From Tichowtungia aerotolerans (lineage in GTDB: Bacteria > Verrucomicrobiota > Kiritimatiellia > Kiritimatiellales > Tichowtungiaceae): a stretch of 32,000 nt of DNA. Where the stretch lies: NCBI RefSeq assembly GCF_009905215.1, contig NZ_CP047593.1:1026900-1058899 (forward strand). Direction: 5' to 3'. Shown here in pieces: positions 12,545 to 15,002 of this stretch. The notes beneath the pieces are model-generated. The model ran no database searches. It saw nothing but the letters and a program-made list of their open reading frames with translations, and was not told the origin of the DNA. Both the position numbers and the translations under genes were made by a program. Every line of letters starts with the position of its first letter. Position 1 is the first letter of the stretch.

Positions 12545-12602
12545 AGCGAACGTTACCAAGCAGCGGCGGCGGTTAGCCGTACGCTGACTTGGCTTGTTAT
12601 GC
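12545..12602 (-). repeat. attC-like site, class B (58 bp)
   Basis: Minus strand: GCATAAC aagCCAAGtCAGCG tacggctaaccgccgcc GCTGCTTGG taac GTTCGCT. The stop TAA of the 801-aa ORF lies inside GCATAAC. The stem has one bulged base. Confidence 0.7.
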
Positions 12603-15002
12603 GGGTCCAATTCTTGTTTCTACTTCGGAAATCTCGTCCCGGGCTTCTGAGCTACGCTCTCTCCAAAAGGTAGTAAAGGCATCATCGTTGATGTCATCGA
12701 GTGCGTTGTCGAGATAGGTCAAAAATTCCTTTGTTCGTGAAACTCGTTCATGGATTGATGTAGTGTCTGCCATACACGCGCGCACTTCCTGTTTAATAAT
12801 CGGGGTATCAAGAGTCATGGCGTCGAGATATTGAAACACTCGGCATAAGTAGTGCAAATGGAATGCACCAAGGCTCGTTAGGCGAAATCTCCTGCGATCA
12901 CGAACTTCATCAGCAGAGAGGATTTCGGGTGTTATAAGTTGCTTAGCCCCAAGGCGCTGAAGTACCTGTTCACAAGCTTGCAAGGAAAACCCGACACCAC
13001 TGAGATAGGAGGTAAGGTCACTCCGTGCAGTGAAACCTCTGGACGGACCGTCCTCAGAGTTTCGAGAGAGAAAGTGAAGGACGCAAAGTGCCAGAAAATG
13101 CTCGGCTTGTTGCGCATGAATAACATCAAAAAGATTTATGAAAGGAGATTCAATTCCGTAGTAGTGCTTATATTCCCCGTATAACAAGGCTTTTACTCCT
13201 TCAAAATCAGGTATGGTGTAGTTCCCATCCGTTTGAATTATACCGAGAATTTTTTTTGTATCTAGATGGCCGCTACACAGCACTGATCGAGCAAAATCAA
13301 GCATTCGGCGGATGTTCCCATTTGATACCGCCTCAAGAACCGGAATAATTCCATGCCGTCTTCGAGCTGCAAATTCACATGATCCAAGCAATGCCGCAAC
13401 ATCTGGAAGTTTCACGCGAATATTTGGATTGTATCCATCTACAGTACCCGATGTTAGCCTCTCGCCACTTGCAATGGATTTTGCATAGGCGAAGCGTCGT
13501 TTAAGCACAAGGGCTAGATCAGGGTGAGCAACCGTAAAAGCAGTCGGAGCAATCGCATCGAGGACTCCTCCCTCCCGAGAGCGATGAAAGGTTTCGGGGC
13601 GTAAACATACAAAAGTAAGACTGGCCCAGTCACGCGCCATTGCTGATGCCCTCAGGAAAGCTTGTTCCTGGATCTCGGTCTCGCGGCGATCCAAATTATC
13701 CACAAAAATAGCGACAGAGCAGTTGCGTCCCTTTTTCAAGTGATGGAAAACGCGTGTGAGATACGCATGTCGATCCTCGAGAATTTTATCAATCTCATCT
13801 AATTCGTATTCCTTGTAGCGCTCTGTATTCTCACAGATCGCTTTGCCTCGAGGCGTGTTCTTGAGGCGCTTTAATTCAAAATGAAGTACCCCGCGGACAA
13901 ATCGATCCTCACGAATATCTATTTTATATAATTCAAGAAGCTGCCTCTCAATTTCATCATAGACATATGTTGGTATTTGTGACGAATCATCTGGGCGGTC
14001 GATGAAATTAACATCTAATTGAATGAACCCAGTAAGGAGCTCGCTTGCAGCCACATGACGTAAATATTTTAAGAAGGAAGTTTTTCCTCTGCCAACTTGC
14101 CCCAAAATTACAAATGGTTTCTCTGTCGGAAGGTGAGCCAATTGCTGCGGAAGATTGTCAATGCTTTTAATATCATGCTGTGTGAGTATGGCGTCTTCGG
14201 CTGTTCTCTTTGCGATCAACTCTTTGACAAGTGCTATAGTGTCCTTGTGGTTCTCCGGGCTCACATAGCAATTGTTAACGAAGTCCGATGATCCTTCATC
14301 TTGCGACATAACCTGCCAAACATAATCAAGCACGTATGATAACTCATTTTGAAAAATATTTCTTTCTGCAGGCTGAGGGTGACCGGGAATTCGAGCGGAT
14401 GCCTTTGAAGGGGCAGGTTTCAGTAGGATATCAAGGAGTGCTCCGTGGATTTCATGGCGAGTTAGATGGGATTTCGAGAAACACTGACAAAACAAACGAA
14501 ATCGTTCCTTTATAGCATCAAACGATTCAAAAATATAGACAAGGCGGTCCAGAAGAGCCTTGCCGTCAACATAGGTCAACGTTAGCAACCATTGCCGTCC
14601 ATTAGTAATGGCTACATAGTGAGCTCCAAGGGTCGCAGCATAGCCTATAGCCTGTTGTAATGCATCGGCAGCTTCTTTCGATTCAGATGCAATAAATCCA
14701 AATGAGTACGGCCTATTTTCGAGAGTATCAGTCTCTAAGGCAAAAGTCTTACCGATACGCTTTGCTTCTATAACAAGAAGGGGTTGCCCCTCGGCGATGC
14801 ATACGTAGTCGGCATATCCTTCAGCACGACAGTAGCGTTCAGGCTCTACGTCCTCCTTCTCCCAGTCAAGTATGTCAAAGAGAATGGTGTCTATTGCCCG
14901 TAAACGAGTAGCTGCTTCGTTCGCATTTTCCGACAGGCGTTTTAGCTCAGGCATCGTTTTTGTAAATGCGGAGTACGCTACATCTGTTCTGCTATCTGTC
15001 AT
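12597..15002 (-). CDS. Cassette ORF: PD-(D/E)xK (HSDR_N-like) nuclease domain fused to a P-loop (STAND/AAA-like) NTPase. Candidate single-gene defence protein.
   Basis: 801 aa from ATG 15000-15002 with an AGGAAA RBS. The ORF-track start at 15077 lies inside the IS110-B end. GYADYVCIAEGQPLLVIEAKR plus QQAIGYAATLGAHYVAITNGRQW are restriction-endonuclease-like. Walker A GQVGRGKT is at 14079-14102. A Walker B-like VAIFVDNLDRRE is at ~13680-13710. The ~350-aa C-terminal region has no motif I recognise. Confidence 0.75.
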   Translation of the reverse strand: MTDSRTDVAYSAFTKTMPELKRLSENANEAATRLRAIDTILFDILDWEKEDVEPERYCRAEGYADYVCIAEGQPLLVIEAKRIGKTFALETDTLENRPYSFGFIASESKEAADALQQAIGYAATLGAHYVAITNGRQWLLTLTYVDGKALLDRLVYIFESFDAIKERFRLFCQCFSKSHLTRHEIHGALLDILLKPAPSKASARIPGHPQPAERNIFQNELSYVLDYVWQVMSQDEGSSDFVNNCYVSPENHKDTIALVKELIAKRTAEDAILTQHDIKSIDNLPQQLAHLPTEKPFVILGQVGRGKTSFLKYLRHVAASELLTGFIQLDVNFIDRPDDSSQIPTYVYDEIERQLLELYKIDIREDRFVRGVLHFELKRLKNTPRGKAICENTERYKEYELDEIDKILEDRHAYLTRVFHHLKKGRNCSVAIFVDNLDRRETEIQEQAFLRASAMARDWASLTFVCLRPETFHRSREGGVLDAIAPTAFTVAHPDLALVLKRRFAYAKSIASGERLTSGTVDGYNPNIRVKLPDVAALLGSCEFAARRRHGIIPVLEAVSNGNIRRMLDFARSVLCSGHLDTKKILGIIQTDGNYTIPDFEGVKALLYGEYKHYYGIESPFINLFDVIHAQQAEHFLALCVLHFLSRNSEDGPSRGFTARSDLTSYLSGVGFSLQACEQVLQRLGAKQLITPEILSADEVRDRRRFRLTSLGAFHLHYLCRVFQYLDAMTLDTPIIKQEVRACMADTTSIHERVSRTKEFLTYLDNALDDINDDAFTTFWRERSSEARDEISEVETRIGPA

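Follow-up and report, generated by a model that had tools for sequence, protein, structure and literature searches.

The 32,000-nucleotide stretch of Tichowtungia aerotolerans DNA analysed here (contig NZ_CP047593.1; hereafter the window) carries an integron cassette of ~2.47 kb with a single minus-strand gene for an 801-amino-acid (aa) protein, in which an HsdR-type nuclease domain is predicted to be joined to a P-loop ATPase, a winged helix and a short helical tail. This protein belongs to a large mobile family that carries no name in any source and that, judged from its domains and its surroundings, looks like a candidate one-gene defence against phages and plasmids. From ~8.8 kb onwards the window holds, up to its high-coordinate end, an array of small open reading frames (ORFs) on the minus strand with related imperfect palindromes between them, and attC-like repeat families (D5, D8, D9 and D10) span 9.4-31.5 kb in one shared orientation; core genes for a sulfatase, a rhamnosidase, a major facilitator superfamily transporter and a LacI regulator lie below 8.3 kb. 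As pointed out in an initial annotation of the sequence, the cassette is several times (3-4x) larger than its neighbours, the ORFs of which encode 113-246 aa (Table 1).

Counted from its first ATG, the minus-strand ORF in the ORF list spans 12597-15077 and encodes 826 aa. That ATG, at 15077, lies within an insertion sequence (IS) element, and the homologues, which are mostly ~800 aa long, align from the Met encoded at 15000-15002; the 801-aa product initially annotated at 12597-15002 is therefore the correct one. The RefSeq model of this gene (WP_160627335.1 / QHI68729.1, T. aerotolerans, 826 aa) is over-extended by window positions 15003-15077, and its first 25 residues represent IS-derived read-through that is foreign to the family. 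A chance ORF can be excluded because a first, word-indexed search yielded 164 homologues and an exhaustive profile search 3099 clusters (50% identity). Among the motifs that had been read from the sequence, GQVGRGKT is encoded exactly at 14079-14102, and QQAIGYAATLGAHYVAITNGRQW and IFVDNLDRRE are both found in the ORF translation; GYADYVCIAEGQPLLVIEAKR is present as well, although its true span is 14757-14819 and not 14761-14820, i.e. it had been placed 1-4 nucleotides (nt) off. The string QQAIGYAA...NGRQW also occurs in the 801-aa protein.

Table 1. Features of the nuclease-ATPase cassette, its product and the adjoining elements (window coordinates)
Feature	Residues	Window positions	Strand	Basis or remark
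Gene for 801-aa nuclease-ATPase-winged-helix protein	1-801	12597..15002	(-)	stop 12597-12599; true start ATG 15000-15002
Putative HsdR-N-type PD-(D/E)xK nuclease domain	~25-175	14478..14930	(-)	alignment, Pfam, model
Helical linker (predicted)	176-290	14133..14477	(-)	DSSP on model; split relatives divided here (L042)
P-loop ATPase core	291-495	13518..14132	(-)	motifs, model, Foldseek
AAA+ lid-like helical domain (predicted)	496-625	13128..13517	(-)	alignment columns; helices in model; Cdc6/Orc1 lid position
Winged helix-turn-helix (predicted)	~626-715	12858..13127	(-)	model and weak PadR/Rv3488-type matches
C-terminal helical module (predicted)	716-801	12600..12857	(-)	alignment and model
attC of nuclease-ATPase cassette		12545..12602	(-)	sequence; resembles attC repeat family D8
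Cassette 5' end ATGCAGGAAAAAAT		15003..15016	(-)	14-nt leader with AGGA ribosome-binding site
IS110-family element, 1.63 kb		15017..16643	(+)	transposase 15304-16323; Pfam DEDD_Tnp_IS110 and Transposase_20
attC of preceding cassette		16644..16702	(-)	100% identical to intact attC 28749-28807

The attC of the cassette has the R'' GCATAAC (12596-12602, including the stop codon) and the R' GTTCGCT (12545-12551), with the cassette boundary G|TT at 12551, and its bottom strand forms one bulged hairpin (-15.3 kcal/mol, z = -2.8). At the other end, the attC of the preceding cassette terminates in ...CAACGTT at 16644 and donates the GTT of the R' core of the studied cassette, and the IS110-family element has been inserted between this GTT and the ATGC of the same core. 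Removal of the element in silico fuses GTT to ATGCAGGAAAAAATATG and gives R' = GTTATGC; the R'' of the cassette itself is exactly the reverse complement of this heptamer. The attC calls rest on the repeat families and on manually defined junctions; a simple attC finder missed many sites and gave false positives in coding regions. Neither intI nor attI was found within the window, and the array continues past its high-coordinate end.

The same core recurs in relatives of the cassette gene. GTTATGC is located 10-30 nt upstream of the start codon in relatives at 81%, 57% and 48% identity (for three chance heptamers in such windows the binomial P is ~1.5e-4), and in the relative at 83% identity a clear attC ends in GTTATGG; in the homologous cassettes this start, GTTATGC or GTTATGG, is followed by AGGAG. 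Moreover, the stop codon is directly followed by GCATAAC in the relatives at 81% (L033) and 48% (L007), a long attC ending in GTTAGGT follows the 57% relative, and many of the metagenomic contigs with relatives are cassette-sized (2.48-2.6 kb). The 2.47-kb unit with the 801-aa gene is confirmed as a genuine integron cassette.

It is documented that sedentary chromosomal integrons carry defence genes in their cassettes (bioRxiv 10.1101/2024.07.02.601686), as the initial annotation had also noted, and the array studied here carries a known type of defence gene since its cassette at 18826-19566 (minus strand) encodes a 246-aa TIR/SEFIR protein with a PADLOC bSEFIR match (E 1e-84). Of the 412 profile positions only 35-250 are matched, and this product resembles a known single-gene defence protein in shortened form. 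With the Vibrio integron defence cassettes our cassette shares that it is promoterless, encodes a single putative nuclease effector and resides in a chromosomal array, but it is far larger than the "streamlined" cassettes stressed for Vibrio and none of the systems described there (Epona, Divona, Damona and others) has its architecture (10.1101/2024.07.02.601686). A promoter scan between the IS end and the ATG gave no promoter-like site. Because the copy is promoterless and the IS cuts off transcription from upstream, its expression in T. aerotolerans is uncertain, and it may be silent or weakly expressed here.

In an alignment of 41 family members (38-83% identity) the N-terminal part contains the invariant positions E29, D65 (14808-14810), E79-A-K81 (14760-14768), Q117xxxY121 and N134-G-x-Q137. 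We take the D...ExK...QxxxY pattern to be that of the HsdR/RecB-type PD-(D/E)xK nucleases, QxxxY presumably being motif III of the RecB family. Pfam HSDR_N matches the 801-aa protein with E 6e-4 and 11 of the 41 members (best 3.6e-5), and HSDR_N_2 is at or above the gathering score in three distant relatives. An AlphaFold2 model based on the 41 members (mean predicted local distance difference test score, pLDDT, 84.7; predicted template modelling score, pTM, 0.74) has an alpha-beta-beta-beta-alpha-beta nuclease core, and for a separate model of residues 1-215 (pLDDT 81.8) the best PDB matches in Foldseek were BpuSI, Cas4, DrdV, EcoR124I HsdR, a Vibrio (V. vulnificus) HsdR fragment, RecU and SPARDA, with the top matches all being PD-(D/E)xK enzymes. 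The predicted fold is consistent with the assignment, yet no independent proof of it; taken together, the Pfam matches, the invariant motifs and the weak fold matches bear out the initial suggestion of an HSDR_N-type PD-(D/E)xK N-terminus.

The ATPase core has the Walker A motif G301xxGxGK307T, the Walker B motif AIFVD435NLD438 (13689-13712) and a sensor-1-like C466-L-R468-P that closes strand 4, and a helical insert of ~90 aa (residues 340-425) separates strands 2 and 3. GxxGxGK[ST] and hhhhDNLD are invariant among the aligned members, as are R468, R565 and the nuclease motifs in all 41 sequences. The lid, which is basic (isoelectric point, pI, 9.4), carries SNGNIRRMLDF in a predicted helix, with N561 and R565 invariant and G562-N563 nearly so (N561 to R565, 13308-13322); we take this motif, given what appears to us a close resemblance to the Cdc6 sensor-2 motif GDARRAxDLL, to be a sensor-2 motif. 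In the model the winged helix-turn-helix (wHTH) is composed of three helices (632-646, 660-670 and 674-686) and two strands (690-692 and 705-708), and the C-terminal module has a conserved FQYxDAxxxDTPI followed by a long helical hairpin. The residues after the lid amount to ~175 aa in total and are modelled without TPR, WD40 or LRR repeats, and no transmembrane segment was detected (maximum 19-residue hydropathy 1.13). Hence, the ~350 aa that the initial annotation left unassigned, as a possible sensor or winged helix, are predicted to comprise the AAA+ lid, a winged helix of ~90 aa and the hairpin, and no big repeat sensor.

A Foldseek search with the whole model ranked archaeal Cdc6/Orc1 first (2qby_A, 1fnn_A and 1w5s_A; E ~2e-5, TM-score on target 0.41-0.47; alignments of the predicted structure over ~500 columns), followed by eukaryotic ORC4 (also E ~2e-5) and Cdc6 and thereafter by Apaf-1 and the plant and animal NLRs ZAR1, NRC and NLRPs (E 1e-4 to 1e-3) and by RFC. 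The Pfam matches of the ATPase are likewise divided: below threshold, ORC-CDC6-like (PF24389) was found in 11 of the 41 members (best E 5e-4), AAA_16 in nine, ATPase_2 in six, KAP_NTPase in four and NACHT in three (E>=7.6e-4), some members have weak matches to nSTAND5 and NPHP3_N, and AAA_22 is above its cut-off only in distant plasmid relatives. While Walker B and CLRP are NACHT-like, the sensor-2 motif and the winged helix are Cdc6-like, and according to the model the ATPase is a member of the ORC/Cdc6-STAND assemblage with the signatures of both mixed. DNLD, the CLRP motif and this fold thus agree with the P-loop NTPase with a NACHT-like Walker B that had been recognised initially.

Avs and bNACHT proteins are bacterial STAND/NLR-type single-protein receptors with N-terminal Mrr, restriction endonuclease (REase) or Cap4 nucleases, and the initial annotation had seen their logic in the 801-aa protein. 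As a possible way of working the comparison is apt: a single polypeptide has, in the same order, an N-terminal PD-(D/E)xK effector, a P-loop switch ATPase with a winged helix and a variable C-terminal module, it occurs in defence-type and mobile contexts, and its fold is matched significantly by structures of NLRs and Apaf-1. It is, however, not evidence of membership, the best relatives being Cdc6/Orc1 before the NLRs. A true receptor of this kind would bind a conserved phage protein with its C-terminal module, and its oligomerised nuclease would attack all DNA in the cell and lead to abortive infection, which we consider unlikely here. Although the C-terminus is variable, as a sensor would be, and although NACHT-like features (DNLD, CLRP and the weak NACHT, nSTAND5 and NPHP3_N matches in some members) are present, the repeat-free ~175 aa after the lid contrast with the at least 400 aa of known Avs sensors (PMC13581612) and the ~800 aa of the family with the ~1000-2000 aa of Avs/bNACHT proteins. 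Furthermore, the structures that match best belong to DNA-binding proteins, the lid has a Cdc6-type GNIRR motif, no Avs or NLR model of PADLOC matched and Pfam NACHT stayed below its cut-off, and the effector is constant, the nuclease being the same in split forms and in distant relatives.

These split forms are exemplified by one locus (L042), in which a 240-aa nuclease gene (5264-5986) precedes a 572-aa ATPase-wHTH gene (6001-7719) by 15 nt and both adjoin a type I restriction-modification locus into which a PIN/PhD pair has been inserted; the nuclease half matches our N-terminal profile with 99.8% probability in hhalign (E 5e-30). Effector swapping, i.e. alternative N-terminal domains, was considered and not found, since the short forms are split genes with the same nuclease. 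Another variant, on a Phaeobacter inhibens plasmid (L047, 5920-8841), is a 973-aa member with two C-terminal cold-shock domains (CSD, E 7e-18).

Among known systems, the ORC/Cdc6-clade conflict ATPases (BrxC/DUF499, SspC, HerA-coupled Orc/Cdc6 and CR-effector-like NTPase-REase; PMC10853773, PMC12839542) share with the family an AAA+ core with Walker A and B, a helical lid (here with a putative sensor-2 arginine), a C-terminal wHTH and, in the predicted structure, the Cdc6/Orc1 fold, as well as the association with restriction-type nucleases and mobile, defence-type neighbourhoods. They differ in being multi-gene systems, or in having the REase at the C-terminus or as an inserted inactive copy, whereas the nuclease of the family is N-terminal and active-looking and its gene stands alone. 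Type I HsdR has the same type of N-terminal nuclease (HSDR_N, HSDR_N_2; fold matches to EcoR124I and V. vulnificus HsdR), but the family lacks the SF2 translocase (no ResIII, DEAD or SWI2_SNF2 match) and conserved HsdM/HsdS genes (44 loci), and appears to have a switch-type ATPase in place of the motor. With the KAP NTPases it shares a long insert between Walker A and B and a Walker B context, DNLDRR, that we presume to resemble the KAP motif IDDLDR; the insert of the 801-aa protein is, however, free of transmembrane helices, as judged by the same hydropathy scan. Pfam KAP_NTPase (PF07693) stays under its cut-off of 20 bits for the 801-aa protein (E 0.016, 14.9 bits, ~half of the profile matched) and exceeds it in one Klebsiella plasmid relative (28.7 bits).

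The 164 relatives of the first search are 38-83% identical to the 801-aa protein and nearly all without a name, and the clusters of the exhaustive search number 3099 at E<=1e-3, 1898 at E<=1e-10 and 911 at E<=1e-30, with the best matches all being full-length. Matches in genomes come from Planctomycetota, Verrucomicrobiota, Desulfosarcina, Nitrospirota, Bacteroidota and Omnitrophota, and 32 plasmid records carry a relative, including full-length ones at 23-29% identity in Klebsiella, Enterobacter, Shewanella, Paracoccus, Rhizobium, Phaeobacter and others. On average, relatives share 56% of residues with the query in the nuclease core and 59% in the ATPase core, against 38% in the C-terminal module and 34% in the winged helix, which is the most variable and fastest-evolving part of the family. 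The Klebsiella-type copy is present in eight of 5426 complete Escherichia coli genomes and is annotated as "hypothetical protein"; this E. coli relative (WP_001349602.1, 24% identity) aligns end to end (E 5e-42) and retains every motif.

Since the frame is intact and none of the catalytic residues varies among the 41 sequences, even at 38% identity, the gene appears to be under purifying selection. This, together with the extremely patchy occurrence in E. coli and the lack of synteny among the loci, makes it hardly credible that the protein is a housekeeping factor of DNA repair or replication, or the product of a decaying pseudogene without current function, even if some loci lie among housekeeping genes, the studied copy is promoterless behind an IS and one E. 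coli copy is disrupted by IS1.

When the ORFs of 27, and later of 44, non-redundant loci were compared all-versus-all, the gene alone was recovered, with no conserved partner; ORFs that did recur were antisense shadows and chance sulfatases and recombinases. The gene is inherited as a single stand-alone unit. At the two E. coli loci examined it resides in lambdoid prophages at two different attachment sites, where it occupies a slot typical of accessory genes, with replication genes (DUF977) on one side and hokD/nin on the other. On plasmids and islands its neighbours include integrases, transposases, VapBC or PIN-RHH toxin-antitoxin pairs, a TrwC relaxase and a YobI-like NTPase. No phage-encoded copy of the 801-aa protein or of the E. 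coli relative was found in INPHARED, and fold matches in BFVD were to generic RFC, AAA and KAP proteins.

Almost all copies are thus on or near cassettes, prophages, plasmids, islands resembling integrative and conjugative elements, IS elements or integrases, and the ORC/Cdc6 clade includes transposition ATPases (PMC10853773), which raises the question of whether the protein serves its carriers, as an addiction or competition module or as a DNA-processing factor like TnsC, MuB or IstB. Such a role is highly improbable in our view: no transposase, replication protein or integrase co-varies with the gene (tyrosine recombinases are present at 4/44 loci), the prophage copies lie outside the replication and integration modules, and the many types of element fit cargo better than core machinery.

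The stand-alone gene is, on the other hand, what would be expected of a type IV enzyme, as no methyltransferase partner is present in the 44 loci, and the HsdR-type nuclease and the frequent position beside restriction-modification systems point the same way. The protein could accordingly be a modification-dependent (type IV-like) or a sequence- or structure-specific restriction enzyme that the host survives and in which the ATPase aids search or cleavage as in McrBC or SauUSI. We regard this as quite improbable, given that neither Pfam nor the model revealed a reader of modified bases (SRA, YTH/EVE, ASCH, DUF3427 or McrB-N) and that the ATPase is neither McrB-like nor a helicase; the label "predicted type IV restriction endonuclease" that relatives have in some sources comes solely from the HSDR_N_2 domain.

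Two further observations concern single neighbourhoods. A gene for SRAP/YedK, an SOS-response-associated peptidase, is located just downstream of a family member in two unrelated settings, on a metagenomic contig (L027, 12655-13152) and on a Paracoccus plasmid (L043, 9256-9936), which may be a coincidence or reflect a loose link to DNA-damage functions. In Klebsiella aerogenes NCTC10006 ("plasmid 4", L036) the relative, which lies downstream of dnaG-rpoD-mug, adjoins fragmented genes for phage terminase and capsid packaging, and this 791-kb "plasmid" record looks like a chromosome with a satellite or prophage remnant.

The initial annotation recognised no named system with this architecture, and our searches lead to the same result. 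PADLOC 2.0, run with the 801-aa protein and three distant relatives, gave nothing significant and contains no model of the family, NCBIfam gave only a weak, far sub-threshold match to the Sll1717-family ATPase, Pfam has domain-level or sub-threshold matches and no family-wide model, and the NCBI annotation pipeline PGAP assigns "hypothetical protein". Searching the PDB by sequence, be it with the protein itself or with the full-length and N-terminal profiles, gave nothing beyond noise from P-loop proteins (IF-2, ABC proteins) and a regucalcin match that was spurious, and these results were discarded. In a literature search by accession and domain keywords, which did not extend to the tables of the 589 clades of PMC13581612, the accessions were uncited and the family was not described. 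The sensor analysis in that 2026 survey of STAND proteins is limited to C-terminal regions of at least 400 aa (PMC13581612) and would leave out the family studied here.

On balance we favour the view that the family protein is a self-contained, ATP-gated DNA endonuclease borne by mobile elements, with phage or plasmid defence as its likely role; the anti-phage function is suggested by architecture and context, and fusions of nuclease and NTPase are a common theme in defence, so that such a family would not be surprising in principle. Among the neighbours that speak for defence, restriction-modification genes lie within ~5 kb at >=5/44 loci (L002, L027, L031, L035 and L042; rough binomial P ~6e-4 against a background of 0.0153, PMC13581612), GAP1/DO-GTPase and a YobI-like NTPase are further examples, and the bSEFIR cassette shares the array of the studied gene. 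In the mechanism that we envisage, the variable C-terminal winged helix, the helical module and the basic lid would recognise a cue from the invader, most likely nucleic acid or nucleoprotein. This cue would let the ORC/Cdc6-STAND-type ATPase take an ATP-bound, self-associating state, as in ORC/Cdc6 and STAND proteins, and oligomerisation would pair the N-terminal HsdR-type PD-(D/E)xK domains, which could then cut DNA. Trigger, oligomerisation, substrate and anti-phage phenotype are all inferred. A nucleic-acid cue is favoured because the best structural relatives are DNA-binding initiators, because the tail is predicted to be a winged helix and has no protein-binding repeat array, and because one relative adds cold-shock domains at the same C-terminal end.

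A more specific version of this endonuclease model would be a minimal, ORC-like innate immune receptor with the invader's DNA as its direct cue, for which the fast-evolving winged helix might read a replication intermediate, a free end or some other structure; the protein would assemble on this DNA in an ATP-dependent manner and cut it with the HsdR-type nuclease. We put it forward tentatively and find it doubtful as it stands. If true, it would define a class of partner-less, modification-independent, ATP-gated restriction enzymes that in mechanism lie between origin-recognition proteins and NLRs.

Several points weigh against a DNA-activated defence nuclease. The wHTH segment of the 801-aa protein is not basic (pI 7.1), which makes the nucleic-acid cue the weakest step of the mechanism, and DNA binding is suggested by analogy of fold. 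The Walker B has D-N instead of D-E and the ATPase may consequently hydrolyse ATP slowly, as a switch and not as a motor, and the fold matches of the nuclease domain all have E>=0.018. As PADLOC has no model for it, the family was never recovered in a defence screen up to 2023. With respect to neighbourhoods, the count of restriction-modification genes was not systematic, and one locus (L029) has neither mobile nor defence context. The 133 neighbours at 17 genome loci are mostly housekeeping genes, with sporadic defence genes and scattered matches to MADS, PLD-helicase, PD-T4-6 and integrase. Of the two kinds of surroundings that the initial annotation had raised for homologues, integron cassettes and other mobile DNA were indeed seen; a strong enrichment in defence islands was not seen around these 17 loci.

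If the family is a defence system, it represents a widespread single-gene family of ~900-3000 clusters at 50% identity that is missed by current catalogues and ranges over the Planctomycetes-Verrucomicrobia-Chlamydiae (PVC) phyla, Proteobacteria, Bacteroidota, Desulfobacterota and Nitrospirota, with members carried by plasmids, prophages and integron cassettes. It would imply that an NLR-like design of effector plus switch works with a ~175-aa winged-helix tail instead of a huge repeat sensor, and would link DNA binding of the origin-recognition type to immunity. Likewise, the idea of integrons as biobanks of defence genes would be widened from Vibrio to Kiritimatiellota and to much larger cassettes. 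With a relative in lambdoid prophages of E. coli, the hypothesis is testable in a standard host with standard phage panels.

Finally, the array contains several IS elements and repeats besides the one at the studied cassette. A second, related IS110-family copy (~19996-21306) shares the left end of the element at 15017, the two being 92-98% identical over the stretches compared, and both are placed at 5' cassette boundaries, in the attC core; insertion at this core is a known behaviour of the IS1111-attC group. This second copy is broken up at 21306 by an IS256-like (Transposase_mut) element of 1449 nt, which is present as a perfect inverted duplicate (21306-22754 / 25862-27310). Another IS110-family element, of 1805 nt, also forms a perfect inverted duplicate (9387-11191 / 24061-25865), and such inverted copies could flip the block of cassettes between them. 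Moreover, a perfect direct repeat of 299 nt (28456-28754 and 29774-30072) indicates a recent partial duplication of a cassette.

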